Assembly: GCA_965116715.1 (NCBI GenBank)
Contig: OZ220724.1
Location: forward strand, 156,963 to 220,962
From: Acidimicrobiales bacterium
Lineage (GTDB): Bacteria > Actinomycetota > Acidimicrobiia > Acidimicrobiales > Poriferisodalaceae
Reading direction: 5' to 3'
DNA: 64,000 nt
Both the position numbers and the translations under genes were made by a program. Positions 5,896-53,309 of the stretch are shown here, one piece after another (the first letter of the stretch is position 1; every line of letters begins with the position of its first letter). A model generated the notes under the pieces. The model saw only the letters and a program-made list of their open reading frames with translations. It was not told the DNA's origin and did no database searches.

Positions 5896-6884
5896 GTTCG
5901 CAGCCGAGCAGCGCTGGCGCGACGCCGGCAGCGGGAGCGAGCACCGGACCGATCGAAGCGGGGCCCAGCCTGGCGGCGAACATTGCTGCGGAGGTGACGG
6001 CGTTTGCACGCGAGGTCGGCGGCGACGATCCGGTCACGGTGGTGGGCGCCCGAACGCACTGGGATGTCGGCGGCGCAGCGCTTGCGGGGACGCGCGAGGT
6101 CCGCGCGCCTGCGGGGGTGTGGGAACACGAGCCGTCGGAGATGACGGTTCGCTGCGGTGCCGGCACGACGGTGGCCGAGCTGGCGGCACATCTCGCTCGT
6201 ACCGGCCAGATGGTGCCGCTCGACCCTGCCGATGGTGCGGCGACCGTGGGCGGGGTGCTGGCGTGCGGCTTCAGCGGGCACCGGCGGCTTCGCTACGGGC
6301 ACGTGCGCGATCTCGTGCTGCAGACGCGCCACGTCGACGCCGCAGGCAAGGTCGTTACTGCGGGCGGACCGACGGTCAAGAACGTCTCGGGCTACGACCT
6401 GCCCCGGCTGCTGGTGGGCTCGCTGGGAACGCTCGGCCTGCTGGCCGAGGTGATACTTCGGGCCTTGCCGGTACCGCCCGCAGCGCAATGGCTGGCCGGT
6501 GACGGAGACCCGTTCGCAGCGTTCGACGTGCTGTACCGACCCAGCAGCATCCTGTGGAACGGCTCACATGCCTGGATCCTGCTGGAGGGCGATCCCAGCG
6601 ATGTCGCTGCCGAAGCCGACCGGGTTGCGCCGTTGGGCTTCAGCCCTGCAGAAGGCGGGCCGCGCATACCTGCGGCGGGACGGGAATCGATGCGGCCGGC
6701 AGACTTGCCCGGACTCGCTGGCACCGGAGGCGAGTGGCTGGCAGAAGTCGGCGTCGGCCTGGTGCATCGAGCCGAACCGGTCGCTGCAGGAGCGGTCGCG
6801 CCGGCCAACGCAGCGTTGATGGCTGCACTGAAGCAGAGGCTGGATCCCGTTGGTCGCCTGAATCCCGGCAGGAGTGCCTGGTGA
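5892..6884 (+). CDS. glcE: glycolate oxidase FAD-binding subunit GlcE
   Basis: The GTG start overlaps the glcD stop (GTGA). It has an FAD_binding_4-like sequence and the expected position in glcDEF. Confidence 0.8.
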   Translation: MSSQPSSAGATPAAGASTGPIEAGPSLAANIAAEVTAFAREVGGDDPVTVVGARTHWDVGGAALAGTREVRAPAGVWEHEPSEMTVRCGAGTTVAELAAHLARTGQMVPLDPADGAATVGGVLACGFSGHRRLRYGHVRDLVLQTRHVDAAGKVVTAGGPTVKNVSGYDLPRLLVGSLGTLGLLAEVILRALPVPPAAQWLAGDGDPFAAFDVLYRPSSILWNGSHAWILLEGDPSDVAAEADRVAPLGFSPAEGGPRIPAAGRESMRPADLPGLAGTGGEWLAEVGVGLVHRAEPVAAGAVAPANAALMAALKQRLDPVGRLNPGRSAW

Positions 6885-8399: not shown

Positions 8400-9011
8400 T
8401 CAGTAGCCGGCTGAGATCCGGTACAGCTCGCCGATGAGGTCGTCGTACTGCCCGATGGCCAGGGCCACGGCGTAGGCCGTGCCGACGGCAGCGCCGGCAA
8501 TGGCGAACGGCAGCCGGTCCAGCACCCTGCCCACGGCGGGCACCGCAGACGGAGCCACTGCGAGCAGCAGCAGCGGCAGCAGGACGCCGACCATGTAGAC
8601 GGCCATGAGCCCGAGCGTCCGCGGTCCCGCGGTCGAGGCGTCGTTCAGGATGTCGCCGAGACGCTCGCCCACGCAGGGTCGCCACAGCCAGCCCGCCAAT
8701 GCGCCGCCCGCGATGCCCGCGCCGGTGGCGAGTGGTGACGCATGGCCCGGGGCGCGCCACGCCGCCACGTAGGTGGCGCCTGCGACGATGCCGGCGATCA
8801 CCACGGCTGCACCTCGTGCCGAGACCCACCAGTGACCGGCCGCCTGCGCCCAAGCCAGCAACGTCGCGCCTGCGGTGTAGTACAGCGCCACGGTGAGCCG
8901 TGCTCTGCGGGCCACGAGCACGAGCGCCAGCCCCGGCACGAGGACAGTGAGCGTGCACGCCCACGTGATCACCCCGATGCCCTCGGTGAGGGTGTCGATG
9001 AGGGTGCTCAC
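8400..9011 (-). CDS. CcdA/DsbD-like thiol-disulfide transporter membrane protein
   Basis: It has about six hydrophobic helices with Cys in TM1 (WACTLTVLVPG) and mid-protein (WRPCVGERLG), as in CcdA. It is adjacent to a TlpA-like redoxin. Confidence 0.65.
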   Translation of the reverse strand: MSTLIDTLTEGIGVITWACTLTVLVPGLALVLVARRARLTVALYYTAGATLLAWAQAAGHWWVSARGAAVVIAGIVAGATYVAAWRAPGHASPLATGAGIAGGALAGWLWRPCVGERLGDILNDASTAGPRTLGLMAVYMVGVLLPLLLLAVAPSAVPAVGRVLDRLPFAIAGAAVGTAYAVALAIGQYDDLIGELYRISAGY

Positions 9012-48145: not shown

Positions 48146-48973
48146 ATGACTTCCGCAGGCAGTTCAGACAGTTCCACGAGTGCCGACCGTCGGCTGGACG
48201 GCAAGGTGGCGGTGGTCACCGGGGCGAGCCGGGGCATCGGCGAAGCCAGCGCGCGAGCGCTGGACGCCGCGGGCGCTCGGGTGGTGCTGACGGGCCGGAC
48301 GACGGCAGATCTCGAACGCGTCGCAGACGAGCTGCTGCATGATCCGGTCGTCCTGACGGCCGATCTCGCTCCCGCCGGAGCCGGCACCGACCTGGCCCGG
48401 CGCATCCTGGGCGAGGTCGACGGCGTCGACGTGCTGGTCAACAACGCAGGCATTCCCATGCGCCGGACTCCCGCACAGCTCACTGAGGCTGACTTCGACT
48501 TGGTCTTCTCGATCAACGTGCGCTCGCTGGTGATGCTGAGCATCGGGCTGGCACCGTCGATGACTGCTCGCGGCGGGGGATCGGTGATCAACATCAGCTC
48601 GGTCGCCGGCGTGCACGGGCCGCTCGGCCGTGTCGCCTATGCCGGCACCAAAGGTGCCGTCGATGCGATGACCCGAGCGCTCGCAGCGGACTGGGGCCCC
48701 GGCGGCATCCGGGTGAACTCGATAGCGCCGGGTCTGATTGCGACCGCCATCTGGGAGGAAGCACGCAACAACGTGCCGGGCCTCATCGACGACCTTGCCG
48801 GTCAGATTGCCCTCAAGCGCTGGGGCTTCGGCGACGACATCGCCGACGTCGTGCTGTTCTTCGCATCGGATGCATCCCGCTACGTCACCGGCGAGACGCT
48901 GGTGGTGGACGGCGGGCTGGCTCGTGTCACGGCCTCGAACGCCCCGCCGGCACTGCCTGAGCTCGAGGACTAA
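48146..48973 (+). CDS. short-chain dehydrogenase/reductase (SDR)
   Basis: It has TGASRGIG, NNAG and the YAGTK catalytic motif. Confidence 0.85.
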   Translation: MTSAGSSDSSTSADRRLDGKVAVVTGASRGIGEASARALDAAGARVVLTGRTTADLERVADELLHDPVVLTADLAPAGAGTDLARRILGEVDGVDVLVNNAGIPMRRTPAQLTEADFDLVFSINVRSLVMLSIGLAPSMTARGGGSVINISSVAGVHGPLGRVAYAGTKGAVDAMTRALAADWGPGGIRVNSIAPGLIATAIWEEARNNVPGLIDDLAGQIALKRWGFGDDIADVVLFFASDASRYVTGETLVVDGGLARVTASNAPPALPELED

Positions 48974-49091
48974 GCAGCGCCTGGACGCGCGGAGGGCGCC
49001 GGACCGCAGTCCGGCGCCCTCCGTTGTGCGCCTGAGCCGTCAGCCCTGCCGGGCTGCGGCTGCGTTCAGTTGTCTACGCAGCGGCGCGTGC
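48788..49091 (+). repeat. left copy of an approximately 304-bp direct repeat (SDR 3' end, terminator and last about 25 nt of proX)
   Basis: It aligns base-for-base with 51803-52106. The last 100 nt or so are identical. The first 200 nt carry scattered substitutions. Confidence 0.85.
48992..49021. terminator. 13-bp perfect hairpin, bidirectional terminator (left copy)
   Basis: GAGGGCGCCGGAC-cgca-GTCCGGCGCCCTC, 19 nt after the SDR stop. Confidence 0.6.
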
Positions 49092-49119
49092 CCCGTCGCT
49101 GGCGACTCAACTGAGGATG

Positions 49120-49428
49120 TCATCGCAGAGAGCCCTCGCAGGCGCTTTGCGCGTCGAATCCGGCAAGTATCCAGTCCCGTCGGGCATGGCGAATCGATTC
49201 CTCGGAGTGTTGGTGTTCCTCTTCCGAGAGAATCGTCGTCGATTCATTCGTCGCCTGTTCGTGCCCCGCCATGTGGGCTTCAACCAGATCACCGTAGTGC
49301 TCCTCTGCATCCAGTTGTGCTTCGACCGCCGCCTCACACTTTGCAGAACCGTCTGTTGCCGAACACGCCGCCATCAGGGCGACTAGCGCGATGCTGGCTG
49401 CCCGGGCAACCCGAATTGGGATGGACAT
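49120..49428 (-). CDS. small putative lipoprotein (102 aa)
   Basis: A signal peptide with lipobox (ASIALVALMAAC) is followed by an acidic, His-rich helical domain. Only the last 102 codons of the 251-aa track ORF are credible. Confidence 0.45.
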   Translation of the reverse strand: MSIPIRVARAASIALVALMAACSATDGSAKCEAAVEAQLDAEEHYGDLVEAHMAGHEQATNESTTILSEEEHQHSEESIRHARRDWILAGFDAQSACEGSLR

Positions 49429-49516
49429 GCGAACTAGACCGCCACGGGCTGGTTGCTGCAGGCATTCTGCGCCTGCGTTGCCGAGCAGCCACAGAAGGCT
49501 TCGTGGATGAATCCGG

Positions 49517-49742
49517 TCACTGGTGGCCGAGACTTCTGGGGCAGACGAACAGCGGCGCAACTGCGCACGCCACGGTGTACCAGTGCGTGTGCCAGACCGG
49601 AACGCTCTGATATGTGCGATCGCAACGCCAGATAAGCGTTGGCTTTCGCGTGTAGACCGGCGCACCCTGCGAGTCGTAGTCAACAACAAGCACATAGTCA
49701 GTGACATATCGGCAGTTGGTCTCGACCAACTCTTGTGCGTAC
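49517..49742 (-). pseudogene. C-terminal part of a small secreted-protein gene split by the IS982 element
   Basis: The reading frame ...YAQELVETNCRYVTDYVLVVDYDSQGAPVYTRK...SLGHQ* is protein-like and abuts the left IS end. Confidence 0.4.
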
Positions 49743-50771
49743 CTAGATGGTTAGTTCCAAGGGGTGGGGTCCACCGGTTAGGGGGTGAGGGTGTCCAAGC
49801 TCGGGGTGTGTATTCACGCCTCGATCTTGGAGGTTCTTGGCATGGGCCCGGACTTGGACACCCTCGCGACTGCACTGTATGTGAGGATCGATGACCTGTT
49901 GGCAGCGAATCCCGGTTGGGCGCCGAAGCGGCCCGAGGTGGGGATCGCGCCGAGGCTGACCGACGCGGAGCTGGTCACCTTGGCGGTGGTCTCGGCGCTT
50001 TTGGGCTATGACAACGAATCGCAGTTCGTGCGCTTCGCGCATGAGCATCTGCGGCCGTGGTTCCCGTATGTGCCCAACCGCGACGGCTACAACAAGCGGC
50101 TGCGGCGCTGCGCCGACACGATCGCCCGGGTCATTGCTGCTTTGGCGCGCGAGTGCGTCTCGTGGAACGACGACGTCTGGCTGGTGGACTCCACCCCCGT
50201 GGGGTGCGGCACCAGCCGCGAGACCGCCAAGCGCTCGGGCCTCGCCGACTGGGCCGAATACGGCTGGTGCGCGTCGCATTCCCGCTATTTCTGGGGCCTG
50301 CGGCTGCACCTGATCGCGACCCCCGCAGGGCTGCCGGTCGCCTTCGCGCTCGCCGGAGCCAAAGCCGACGAACGCGACGTCTGCGCCGCCATGATCGACC
50401 AAGCCGGCCTGGGCCGACGGGGCCAGACCCTCATCGCCGACAAGGGCTACCGCTCCCAAGCCTTCGAGACCGGCCTCAGCTCGGCCGGCATCACCATGCT
50501 GCGGCCCGCCACCCGCACCGAGACCCCGCGGCCCGGTGCCAAGCTCCTGCGCCCGCTGCGCCAGATCATCGAATCGATCAACTGGACACTCAAAGGCCAA
50601 CTCAGCCTCGAACGCCACCGCGGCCGCACCCGCACAGGCGTCGCCGTCCGCATCGCCACCCGCCTGCTCGCCCTCACCGCCGCCATCTGGCACAACGAGA
50701 CCTACCACCCCCACCGGCCACCACGCTCACTGACCGCCTACGACCACTAACCCTTGGAACTAACCATCTAG
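49743..50771 (+). mobile_element. IS982-family insertion sequence (1029 bp)
   Basis: It has perfect 21-bp terminal inverted repeats (CTAGATGGTTAGTTCCAAGGG) at 49743-49763 and 50751-50771. They enclose one DDE transposase ORF. Confidence 0.85.
49842..50750 (+). CDS. IS982-family DDE transposase
   Basis: The sequence DDLL...LTDAELVTLAV...LVDSTPV...IADKGY...IESINWTLKGQL is typical of IS982 transposases. GGAGG lies 7 nt before ATG 49842. The track ORF begins at 49785. Confidence 0.85.
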   Translation: MGPDLDTLATALYVRIDDLLAANPGWAPKRPEVGIAPRLTDAELVTLAVVSALLGYDNESQFVRFAHEHLRPWFPYVPNRDGYNKRLRRCADTIARVIAALARECVSWNDDVWLVDSTPVGCGTSRETAKRSGLADWAEYGWCASHSRYFWGLRLHLIATPAGLPVAFALAGAKADERDVCAAMIDQAGLGRRGQTLIADKGYRSQAFETGLSSAGITMLRPATRTETPRPGAKLLRPLRQIIESINWTLKGQLSLERHRGRTRTGVAVRIATRLLALTAAIWHNETYHPHRPPRSLTAYDH

Positions 50772-50898
50772 TGTCGGCACTAGCCGGATTCGCGCCGACT
50801 ATGCCGACGAGCGTGGTTGCCAACATCAGAGCGGCTAGCACGACCGCCAAGGGACGACGCAGCGCCCACAGGCGTCCGTCACGGTTGATTAACTTCAC
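50772..50898 (-). pseudogene. N-terminal (signal peptide) part of the IS-disrupted secreted-protein gene
   Basis: AAGGAGG lies 5 nt before GTG 50898. The sequence VKLINRDGRLWALRRPLAVVLAALMLATTLVGIVGANPASAD then runs into the right IS end. Confidence 0.45.
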
Positions 50899-50945
50899 AT
50901 CTGCCTCCTTGTAGGGGATTAGTTGGATTTCCCTACACTGGGAGC

Positions 50946-51689
50946 GTGGATGTATCGTTTCAGACAGGACCGCGCGAGCCGAGGGCGGTTGCGTACGCAC
51001 GGGTGTCCACCGGAGCGCAGGCCGACTCCGGGCTGGGAGTCGCCGCGCAGCACCGAGCGATCGCTGCGGCCGCTGCGGAACGAGGTTGGGATGTGGTGGG
51101 CGCATTCACCGACGGCGCTGTGTCAGCGACCATCGAACCTCAGCGCCGCCCACAGCTCTCGGAGGCACTCAAGCTGCTTGCCACCGGTGGCGCCGACATG
51201 CTGATTGCGGCACGGCTGGACCGCTTTGCCCGCTCGATGCGCGATTTGATGTGGTTGTTGGACATCGCGGATGATCAGGGTTGGCAGCTACTGGGCCTCG
51301 ATGTCATCGTGGACCCCAAGACTCCGATCGGTTCCTTCCTACGCACCGTGCTCGGTGCGTTTGCGGAACTCGACCGCGCCGTGATCAGCGAGCGTACGAC
51401 TGCGGCCCTGTCAGTAGCGAAGAGCCGCGGAACTCGGTTGGGACGCCCCTGCCAGCAACCACAAGAAGCAATGGACCTAGCTGTGACCATGCGCGCCGAA
51501 GGGAACAGCTATCGCCAGATCGGCAGAGCCCTCCAAGACCGCGGCCTGCGCACAGCACAGGGGTGCAGTACTTGGCACGCCGCCACCGTGCGATCCCTGA
51601 TCAATAGCGCTCGTCTCGATGCGGAAGCCGCTGCGAACAGAGTCGCTCTCCAAGCCATCGAGCGTCTCGCATTGGCCGAGAACACTTGA
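50946..51689 (+). CDS. small serine recombinase (resolvase/invertase family with a C-terminal HTH)
   Basis: AVAYARVSTGAQ holds the catalytic Ser. The motifs DRFARS and ELDRAVISERT are present, and the C-terminal segment NSYRQIGRAL is an HTH. Confidence 0.85.
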   Translation: MDVSFQTGPREPRAVAYARVSTGAQADSGLGVAAQHRAIAAAAAERGWDVVGAFTDGAVSATIEPQRRPQLSEALKLLATGGADMLIAARLDRFARSMRDLMWLLDIADDQGWQLLGLDVIVDPKTPIGSFLRTVLGAFAELDRAVISERTTAALSVAKSRGTRLGRPCQQPQEAMDLAVTMRAEGNSYRQIGRALQDRGLRTAQGCSTWHAATVRSLINSARLDAEAAANRVALQAIERLALAENT

Positions 51690-51802
51690 CAGCCGCACCA
51701 GCCGGGTGTAGATAAACGAACATATACGCTACGCATATAGGCCGTGTCTGGGCCTGTGATTCGCCTTGGGACGTAGCTACGGGATCCCGGGCGAGCCTCG
51801 TT

Positions 51803-51988
51803 GACAACCTTGCCGGTCAGATTGTCCGCAGGCGCTGGGGCTTCGGCGACGACATCGCTGATGTGGTGCTGTTCTTCGCATCGGATGCATCCCGCTACGT
51901 CACCGGCGAGACGCTGGAGGTGGACGGCGGGCTGGCTCGTGTCACGGCCTCGAACGCCCCGCCGGCCCTGCCGGATCTCGAGGACTGA
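51803..51988 (+). pseudogene. orphan 3' fragment of an SDR gene (part of the right direct repeat)
   Basis: It translates in frame to ...NLAGQIVRRRWGFGDDIADVVLFFASDASRYVTGETLEVDGGLARVTASNAPPALPDLED*, which closely parallels the C-terminus of the SDR at 48146..48973 with a few substitutions. It has no 5' part. Confidence 0.8.
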
Positions 51989-52007
51989 ACCGCACCCGAA
52001 CGCGCGA

Positions 52008-52035
52008 AGGGCGCCGGACCGCAGTCCGGCGCCCT
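52008..52035. terminator. 12-bp hairpin, bidirectional terminator (right copy)
   Basis: AGGGCGCCGGAC-cgca-GTCCGGCGCCCT lies between the SDR fragment and the proX stop. Confidence 0.6.
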
Positions 52036-52088
52036 CCGTTGTGCGCCTGAGCCGTCAGCCCTGCCGGGCTGCGGCTGCGTTCAGTTGT

Positions 52089-53309
52089 CTACGCAGCGGC
52101 GCGTGCTGCGTCGAGCCAGGCGTCAACCGTGGCCCGGTTGTTGGCAATCCACTGGATGGCGATGTCACGCGGCGGTGTGCCCCCGTCTTGTTCGACGTTG
52201 GCCAACGCCACGTCGATGACCGACAGCGTCACAGCGTCGAACAATGCTTCGGCAGCCGGGTTCGCCGCCAGGAAGTTGTTGTTCGCAGTCACCTGGATGT
52301 CGGCGGCGATCCAGCCGAGCTGGCACAGGCCGTCAGCGGACGTACCCGCGGACGGGCACGCGTCTGGGCCGATCTGTGCGTTGACCGGTGAGCCGTCGGA
52401 GCCGAGCTGGCTCCACTGCTCACCGCCCTCAAGTCCCAGCGGGTTGGAGTCGTCGATCACGTTCTCGACGCCCATCCAATACACATTGTCGCCCGGGCGC
52501 AGCTGCGTCAGATACGCCGTGGGAGTCCATGTGTACATCACCATCGCCTTGCCATCGTCAGCGTTGTCAACCGCTTGGGCGAACATCGCGTCGTAGCCGG
52601 CTTTGACTTGCTGGATGTTGTCCCAGCTGCTGAATGCGATCTGACTCTCGATGATGTCGTCGCAGGTCCAGTCCTCGGGGCAGCCGAAGATATCGGCGAC
52701 GCCGTTGCCCGGATCAGCGTCGACCTCGTCGAACGCGGCAAGCGCATCGGCGTTGCGGTTGAGCTCATCCATGGTGTAGACGCCGTACTCGTCGGCGAAT
52801 GCCTTCGTGACCAGGAAGCCCTGGAGCCCACCGGCCACCATCTCTTCGCCGACGATGGTCACATGCTCCTTCACGAGCGAACCATCGGGCAGCTCGTTCT
52901 CCAGCCACGAGAGGTGGCCCGGGTACCAGCTGTTGGGCCAGTAGTCCATTTCGCCCAAGGCCATGGCGGTGTAGCCATTGCTCGGGCCGAGCTCGATCTC
53001 GGCCGGGTCGGACACCTCGTAGCCCAGTTCCTCGAGCAGCAGCTTGTAGAGCTCAGCTTGGAAGTAGCCACTGGACCAATTGGCCCGGCCGGCCAGAACC
53101 GAGACGCCCTCGCCAGGCGTCATCGACATCTCTTCCATCGGCTCTGTAGCTGCCGGCTCTTCTTCGACCATGGCTTCGGTCGTGGCGGCAGGAGCCTCGG
53201 TCTCGGCAGTTTCCGTGGCATCGCCGTCACCGTCGTCGCCGCACGCGGCAGCGAACAGTGCGAAGGCTGCTAGTAGCAACAGCAGCTTGGTCCATCGTTT
53301 CGATTTCAT
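52089..53309 (-). CDS. proX: glycine betaine/proline betaine ABC transporter substrate-binding lipoprotein
   Basis: A lipobox (LFAAACG) and an acidic linker are followed by an OpuAC-type domain (ANWSSGYFQAELYK..., YWPNSWYPGH). Confidence 0.85.
   Translation of the reverse strand: MKSKRWTKLLLLLAAFALFAAACGDDGDGDATETAETEAPAATTEAMVEEEPAATEPMEEMSMTPGEGVSVLAGRANWSSGYFQAELYKLLLEELGYEVSDPAEIELGPSNGYTAMALGEMDYWPNSWYPGHLSWLENELPDGSLVKEHVTIVGEEMVAGGLQGFLVTKAFADEYGVYTMDELNRNADALAAFDEVDADPGNGVADIFGCPEDWTCDDIIESQIAFSSWDNIQQVKAGYDAMFAQAVDNADDGKAMVMYTWTPTAYLTQLRPGDNVYWMGVENVIDDSNPLGLEGGEQWSQLGSDGSPVNAQIGPDACPSAGTSADGLCQLGWIAADIQVTANNNFLAANPAAEALFDAVTLSVIDVALANVEQDGGTPPRDIAIQWIANNRATVDAWLDAARAAA

Follow-up and report, generated by a model that had tools for sequence, protein, structure and literature searches.

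A serine recombinase cassette between two copies of an SDR/proX gene junction in Candidatus Poriferisodalis: a possible case of old single-crossover integration

Integration of circular DNA by a single homologous crossover (Campbell integration) is textbook knowledge, with suicide plasmids and lambda-gal-type transducing circles as examples; few clear cases are known from nature in which the orphan copy can be dated. The known sites of serine recombinases measure about 30–50 bp (about 120 bp for res), and known pairs of phage and bacterial attachment sites (attP/attB) have only few bases in common. The actinomycete integrative elements of the pSAM2 and SLP1 type use tyrosine integrases, replicate or conjugate, and show att identity segments of 50–110 bp at the 3′ ends of genes or tRNA genes. 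Recombinases of resolvase size have rarely been shown to integrate DNA. One such case is described in PMC3816273 (reporting Askora et al., 2011): the small serine recombinase of phiRSM, a phage with a 13-nt attP/attB core, resembles resolvases and invertases and integrates at a tRNA 3′ end. Here we report on a stretch of 64,000 nt (hereafter the window; contig OZ220724.1, positions 156,963–220,962) from the genome of an uncultured member of Candidatus Poriferisodalis, a genus of sponge symbionts recognized here by the names that homologous proteins have in source databases. In the window, the junction between an SDR-family oxidoreductase gene and proX is found twice, on either side of an insert encoding a small serine recombinase. 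We tentatively favor, with a probability set a little below one half, an old Campbell-type single-crossover integration of circular DNA which carried the cassette together with a piece of this junction from the same lineage.

Two copies of the SDR/proX junction

Comparing the locus with itself base by base revealed direct repeats of 318 bp at window positions 48781–49098 and 51796–52113 (offset 3,015 bp), with an insert of 2,697 bp (49099–51795) between both copies. Initial repeat detection had returned 300 nt at 93% identity. The initial annotation, made from the sequence alone, had claimed repeats of the SDR/proX junction of 304 bp (48788–49091 and 51803–52106); the repeats are real, with somewhat wider limits. 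Each copy comprises the SDR 3′ end, then two terminator hairpins, and then the last 25 nt of proX. The proX share was thus given correctly, and the SDR part measures 193 nt instead of the 186 nt assumed before. Hairpin T1 (48990–49023; copy at 52005–52038) is a perfect 34-nt palindrome with a stem of 15 bp, and not of 13 bp as annotated; it is followed by a second strong stem-loop, T2 (49035–49061; copy at approx. 52050–52076), which, in the left copy, is downstream of a minus-strand lipoprotein gene.

The left copy completes the intact SDR gene (48146–48973, plus strand), whose last 193 nt lie inside the repeat, and ends with an orphan proX end of 25 nt on the minus strand (49074–49098; the last 8 codons and the stop). 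The right copy includes an orphan SDR 3′ fragment (51796–51988), T1, T2 and the true 3′ end of proX, and completes this intact gene for an OpuAC-type glycine-betaine binding protein (52089–53309, minus strand). This distribution of intact and orphan ends is as originally described. The functional SDR gene stops with TAA (48971–48973); the right copy and 15 of 15 congeners have TGA.

The copies differ by 22 mismatches, 20 of them in the first 212 nt (left copy: 48785, 48787, 48791, 48810, 48813, 48816, 48844, 48847, 48850, 48903, 48952, 48958, 48961, 48972, 48974, 48976, 48979, 48982, 48984 and 48992), none in the next 99 nt, and two thereafter (49092 and 49093, CC versus TG). The mismatch-free block, 48993–49091, with T1 at its start, bears out the approx. 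100 nt of distal identity noted earlier, and the residue differences quoted there (IALKRW versus IVRRRW, LVVDGG versus LEVDGG) are correct in a codon comparison. The 19 nt after the SDR stop are the most variable segment of the repeat (6 mismatches). A possible leftward homology reaches about 60 nt beyond the repeat at approx. 60% identity and is weak (z = 3.6; 36/5000 shuffles); in the same comparison of the copies, a rightward extension was not significant.

Repeats carry a general risk of being collapsed or expanded during assembly, and nothing else speaks for an artefact here. The source genome is a single contig of 3.61 Mb, and a separately deposited assembly of 3.659 Mb is 100% identical across the complete structure. 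Three independent sequencing runs (2015, 2023, and 2025) yielded copy-specific contigs with 0 mismatches and an insert depth close to the flank depth; they cover the left-copy variants and the join from the left repeat to the lipoprotein gene, as well as the join from the recombinase gene to the right-copy variants and the join into proX. An assembly artefact is thereby effectively refuted, and we assign it practically no probability. In 15 of 15 other species of the genus that were compared, the junction is single-copy and has no insert. Neither a single-copy assembly of this genome nor a relative with the duplication but without the insert was encountered, the two findings which the initial annotation had named as refuting. 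No 3,015-bp joint was found in Logan contigs, which break at the repeat, and there were no reads across the identical block. A 1% sample of the one raw-read run (Hi-C) contained no reads from this organism. A closely related empty-site strain was not present in runs X6–X8, which contained only a relative of approx. 94% identity lacking the cassette.

The sequence of the orphan SDR fragment gives hints on its origin. Left and right copy differ at 14 of 194 coding positions, compared to at least 29 coding differences between the right copy and every other species (n = 15), and 20 of 194 between the left copy and the nearest species, G014. The two copies are thus each other's closest relatives, with most of the change on the right-copy branch. 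The right copy has 7–8 amino acid replacements (G>S, I>V, D>N, A>V, L>R, K>R, V>E, E>D), each affecting a residue which is invariant in the left copy and the 15 other species (16 sequences), in addition to about 4–5 silent changes. In the left copy, only a few derived silent changes were found, TGA>TAA among them. By this pattern, the orphan fragment has decayed neutrally and was functionless for essentially its whole separate history. Taken together, close kinship and neutral decay indicate that the duplication is old and was built from sequence of this lineage. The earlier proposal of a related strain as donor is not supported, given both the kinship and the replacements at invariant residues.

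A recombinase cassette family in the genus

Outside of a nested insertion sequence (IS), the insert has a GC content of 56–64%, in contrast to 67–70% in the flanks, which gives it a foreign look, and it is unique within its own genome. Its gene content is as stated in the initial annotation: a lipoprotein, an IS-disrupted secreted protein and a serine recombinase. The lipoprotein gene (49120–49428, minus strand; 102 aa, lipobox LMAAC) is cassette cargo; its product has no match in Pfam or NCBIfam, and homologs adjoin the recombinase gene in genomes G003 and G018 and in a second cassette of the own genome. The gene for a small Cys/His-rich secreted protein (‘sec’ family) is cut into a C-terminal part (49517–49746, minus strand) and an N-terminal part with the signal peptide (50768–50898, minus strand), which are in frame once one CTAG is kept. 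Between these halves lies an IS982-family element of 1,029 bp (49743–50771, plus strand; transposase 49785–50750) with perfect inverted repeats of 21 bp. The transposase scores 171 bits on NF033520 (NCBIfam cut-off 130). Ten genome copies of the element were found, always with CTAG at both ends, and it occurs at 99.9% identity in the metagenomes of the approx. 94% relative without cassette (X6–X8). Since the ten copies are reported to be 100% identical, the IS982 element is a recent, secondary insertion, which split the sec gene. The divergent region between sec and recombinase gene is intact and contains an inverted repeat, GTAGGGGA-N10-TTCCCTAC (50910–50937). A promoter motif, P, consisting of TTGACA-N17-TAGATA and an AT-rich AACGAACATATACGCTACGCATAT leader (51685–51741, plus strand), overlaps the recombinase stop and points into the right repeat. 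A simple promoter and terminator scan returned nothing useful.

The recombinase gene (50946–51689, plus strand) encodes 247 aa of the small resolvase/invertase type with the YARVS catalytic-serine motif (AYARVSTGAQ in the sequence). Its N-terminal catalytic domain matches PF00239 at residues 14–163 (E = 1.2e-33), among solved structures it comes nearest to Gin invertase and the gamma-delta/Tn3 resolvases, and the C-terminal region matches PF07508 weakly, at residues 174–221 only. Homologs were detected in 26 of 32 genomes of the genus. Because their open reading frames mostly span 240–330 aa, the protein is considered full length. For the same reason, a truncated large serine integrase (phiC31, Bxb1 or CcrAB type, >400 aa) was rejected; the models for CcrA/B/C and XisF score far under their cut-offs. 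An IS607-type serine transposase was dismissed as well, given the N-terminal catalytic domain and 22.9 bits on NF033518 (cut-off 110), and so was a tyrosine-integrase island or actinomycete integrative and conjugative element, as there is no tyrosine integrase open reading frame between the repeats. The recombinase is thus intact, catalytic motif included.

Judging from homology, the insert belongs to a cassette family of Ca. Poriferisodalis, defined here by a small Cys-rich secreted protein (sec), a lipoprotein, a resolvase/invertase-type recombinase of approx. 240 aa, and a conserved P motif. A literature search on the genus name returned no papers. Homologous modules were found in G003, in G018 and at a second locus of the own genome (C1:2324252–2325970; locus L059, 2253–3971). 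In all three, the order is sec, in some cases a small membrane protein, and lipoprotein, followed by the recombinase gene convergent with the lipoprotein gene at a distance of 14–90 nt. The second cassette of the own genome, which includes the membrane protein gene and has a recombinase 45% identical to that of the window, is located between a histidine-kinase stop and tRNA-Glu(ttc), at the 3′ end of the latter. A distance of approx. 16–85 nt, free of a cassette, separates the two in at least ten congeners. No long flanking duplication was found at this tRNA-Glu site.

The family consensus of P is TTGACA-N17-TAnnnW followed by ACGAACRT and mostly also CTCTGACCAGC. It resembles a sigma-70 promoter with leader (form TTGACA-N17-TACAAT ACGAACGTTTC ... 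CTCTGACCAGC), faces outward, and marks one cassette end. Exactly two P motifs occur in the 3.6-Mb genome, both at cassettes (in the window and at L059, 2021–2057, minus strand), and at least 11 cassette loci carry it elsewhere in the genus (e.g., L068, 6905–6941, minus strand). The motif has no Rfam match. Were the tRNA-Glu copy to circularize, reading from P would cross the joint and enter the recombinase gene.

The members of the family reside at the 3′ end of tRNA-Glu or tRNA-Leu or directly after stop codons. In three unrelated genes, encoding a histidine kinase, an aminotransferase and a 628-aa protein, the promoter-leader end abuts a stop in GACTGA context (L059 approx. 1917; L068 6815; leader ends in L054, L055 and L057), and the SDR gene likewise ends with GAC TGA (corresponding window positions 48968–48973 and 51983–51988). 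GACTGA may therefore be a target motif. At the aminotransferase site of G041, G033 and G034, the junction of gene stop, leader, promoter and recombinase is present and there is no repeat. In G008 (locus L036, 1254–9093), an island of 7.8 kb lies between the SDR stop, which it follows directly, and the terminator hairpin. It encodes four large (616–686 aa), secreted, Cys/His-rich proteins of the sec family with Pro/Thr repeats and has neither a repeat nor a recombinase. The junction is therefore a recurrent target for such cargo.

Long repeats next to recombinase homologs were inspected at 28 other loci. Most of them were accounted for by tandem or paralogous cassettes or by repeats within a protein, and G002, G015, G039, G017, G041 and G001 were excluded as host-gene duplications, which leaves G040 as the sole true case. 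In G039 (locus L070, 3712–4653 and 7929–9173), a recombinase gene is situated between an intact and a 5′-truncated gene for a DUF4143-type AAA ATPase. These ATPase copies are 97% identical over at least 300 nt, and the arrangement probably represents tandem cassette units and not a target duplication. The three closest recombinase homologs (59–61% identity; G003 L052, G018 L051, G038 L053) adjoin a DUF3107-pdtaS locus. In the own genome (L060), the gene order at pdtaS differs, with a diacylglycerol-kinase-like gene on the opposite side, so that a local rearrangement beside the recombinase gene may be suspected. This rearrangement confounds the comparison of the pdtaS locus as a means to define the cassette ends.

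In G040 (locus L068), a direct repeat (6589–6815 and 8576–8802) comprises the 227 nt at the end of a class-III aminotransferase gene; the second copy lies 1,987 bp downstream at 94% identity, and a recombinase homolog and a sec gene are found in between. The repeat is a mosaic of about 130 diverged nt, 83 identical nt, a 2-nt mismatch and 11 further nt up to its end. Both copies share lineage-specific states in comparison with ten other species, and three invariant residues are replaced in the orphan. The aminotransferase gene is without a cassette in 27 genomes, and orphan aminotransferase fragments are absent from G041, G033 and G034. Beside the intact gene of G040, the junction is the normal one of the family. 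This is expected if a circle of an integrated cassette plus 227 nt of the flanking gene re-entered an empty site by homology; an exchange by the recombinase exactly at GACTGA would yield the same product. The second case suggests that integration with long repeats recurs in the cassette family and is not a one-off accident.

Possible origins of the repeats

In the window cassette, the lipoprotein gene is found at one end of the insert and the recombinase gene, with P downstream of it, at the other. A homolog with 79% identity on a short metagenome contig has P directly upstream. On the same contig (L062, Logan, 1638 bp), positions 1424–1638 contain a degenerate second P and then the first 28 codons of another recombinase gene (MLRAVSYARVSAG...), which suggests tandem recombinase units in that cassette lineage. 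Since the chromosome here keeps apart two genes which are adjacent elsewhere, a circular or tandem intermediate is implied. The window cassette is best read as one unit whose source would have been a circle or a tandem array, cut at a place other than the standard one.

In the Campbell-type reading that we favor, the circle would have consisted of one cassette unit (lipoprotein, small secreted protein, recombinase and P) and an SDR/proX piece of approx. 320 bp. A single crossover with the chromosomal junction, carried out by the homologous recombination of the host (‘ends-in’) and presumably dependent on RecA, would have integrated it and left the cassette with a copy of the junction on either side. 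The source of the junction piece would have been the same lineage, e.g., by an earlier aberrant excision or as a circularized fragment from a conspecific cell. Afterward, selection would have acted on the resident copy, with neutral decay of the orphan SDR fragment. The central 99 nt may have been kept identical by crossover or gap repair at this place, or by the terminator hairpins serving four genes. Later, the IS982 element would have split the secreted-protein gene. A Campbell-type footprint had already been proposed for the locus. The insertion itself, the repeats of the target, the empty sites in relatives, the foreign look of the insert and the permuted gene order agree with this proposal; its related-strain source for the second copy is not supported.

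Several observations weigh against such a crossover. Neither a circle nor an empty-site molecule nor a donor was seen, and no read bridges the identical block. The model needs a prior step which joins junction DNA to the cassette. Neither window junction corresponds to the family's normal one with the promoter-leader end abutting a GACTGA stop. Further, the two cases share the same order of parts (diverged sequence, 83–99 identical nt, a 2-nt mismatch, a short tail) and look more regular than predicted for random homologous crossovers. Finally, the intact recombinase and the perfect palindrome within the identical block leave room for a site-specific mechanism.

Such a mechanism is the main rival, though in our estimate a rather unlikely one: the cassette would be integrated by its own recombinase through an attP which mimics the target, and the repeats would represent attL and attR. 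The exchange would occur inside the identical block, e.g., at the T1 palindrome in the window and at the GACTGA stop in G040; the block would be kept identical since both partner sites need to be recognized, and the rest of the mimic would decay. A precedent are the resolvase-type integrases of phiRSM phages acting at a tRNA 3′ end (PMC3816273). In agreement with this idea, the recombinase is intact and retains its catalytic motif, a perfect 15+4+15 palindrome is part of the identical block, and the same mosaic is found in two independent cases. An exchange exactly at GACTGA in G040 gives both junctions observed there. The family also inserts at fixed places, after GACTGA stops and beside tRNA genes, and the SDR gene, which ends in the same way, has a related island right after its stop in G008. 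However, ordinary insertions of the family have no target mimic. They also lack a long repeat (at tRNA-Glu and in G041, G033 and G034), and therefore the repeat in the window needs more than the recombinase. Moreover, the promoter-leader end in the window does not abut a GACTGA stop; with non-standard junctions on both sides, the 318-bp repeats are not accounted for by what the recombinase usually does. No motif is common to the identical block of the window and that of G040 (by inspection only), and the known sites of serine recombinases are far shorter than these repeats, with attP/attB pairs of little similarity.

The identity of the 99-nt block needs a separate explanation. All 20 of the 20 left-hand mismatches fall in the first 212 of 311 positions, for which uncorrected arithmetic gives (212/311)^20, i.e., approx. 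5e-4. One explanation is mechanical, namely a crossover within the block or a gap which was repaired from the partner. The other explanation is constraint, as the two hairpins serve four genes: they lie downstream of the SDR and lipoprotein genes in the left copy and downstream of the recombinase gene and proX in the right copy. Because this stretch is conserved in the comparison with G014 (3/98 differences versus 20/194 in the coding part), the lack of differences between the copies could reflect such constraint.

The duplication may also have arisen in one step, by illegitimate recombination, a possibility to which we attach a low probability. Both copies would have been identical at birth and the orphan parts would have decayed in place. 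A linear cassette fragment might have been joined ‘ends-in’ through microhomology, or a template switch during replication might have generated a 318-bp tandem duplication and captured the cassette at the join point. No donor with a captured junction is required for this. The kinship of the copies, which are mutually closest, and the neutral look of the orphan's changes are as expected, likewise in G040, and the identical block coincides with two strong hairpins useful in both copies; the G014 values show that constraint could give zero differences. Nevertheless, the 83-nt identical block of G040 lies in orphan coding sequence without evident constraint. In the window, the switch is abrupt, with six differences in the 19 nt just ahead of the block and then none in 99 nt. 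Besides, two independent rare events in one cassette family would have to be assumed.

A repair of the SDR gene was considered last and is, in our view, very improbable. According to this scenario, the cassette first disrupted the SDR gene at codon 212, so that the original end of the gene would be the right copy, and an intact SDR end with terminators, imported later from a conspecific cell, restored the gene to the left of the cassette. In favor, the promoter-leader end abuts the start of the orphan SDR fragment, and the left copy is the functional one, with neutral decay in the orphan. On the other hand, two rare events are needed, one of which is an illegitimate join 25 nt inside proX. In addition, the identical block is left unexplained, and so is G040, where the normal junction is at the intact gene.

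Relation to known integrative systems

Campbell integration and IS982 elements are already known. New is a genus-wide set of cassettes with resolvase-sized recombinases and secreted proteins, with an outward promoter, insertion at GACTGA or tRNA ends, and two mosaic duplications of 227–318 bp. It is conceivable but doubtful that they represent undescribed integrative cassettes of approx. 1.7 kb which use a copy of the target-gene end (230–320 bp) as attachment site, and whose integration leaves long mosaic direct repeats, with an identical block of approx. 85–100 bp for recognition and crossover and an arm that decays. If true, integration would proceed by target mimicry, which is not known for serine recombinases and would give these enzymes a new way of choosing sites. 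The cassette family spreads small secreted proteins and lipoproteins through the genomes of an uncultured sponge symbiont. Two insertions with long repeats, fixed insertion points and a conserved outward promoter together make a testable system, from which one could learn how the homologous recombination of the host and small serine recombinases jointly move cargo in bacteria without obvious plasmids or phages.

With IS982 elements, the nested element shares a score above the family cut-off, a length of approx. 1 kb, 21-bp inverted repeats and its multi-copy state; its role here differs, as it is a late passenger which did not create the 318-bp repeats. Like the pSAM2 and SLP1 elements, the window cassette has an actinobacterial host, an insertion at a gene 3′ end and an identical segment of approx. 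100 bp in what would be attL and attR. In contrast to them, the insert has no tyrosine integrase, rep or tra gene, and diverged homology extends 5′ of the identical segment. The phiRSM recombinase is similar in its size of approx. 240 aa with an N-terminal catalytic domain, and members of the cassette family are likewise found at tRNA-Glu and tRNA-Leu 3′ ends, or after stops. Unlike the phage, we are dealing with a secreted-protein cassette of approx. 1.7 kb, flanked in two cases by repeats of 227–318 bp, and with a predicted recombinase activity. Compared to laboratory cases of Campbell integration, the window case is natural, old and fixed in the population; its circle is one that we infer, its homology piece has only approx. 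320 bp and stems from the same lineage, and its passenger has no replication gene. The likeness to Campbell integration consists of direct repeats whose length equals that of the shared homology, an intact and an orphan gene end per side, a site that is empty in relatives, and an identical central block between diverged arms, as left by gap repair with crossover.

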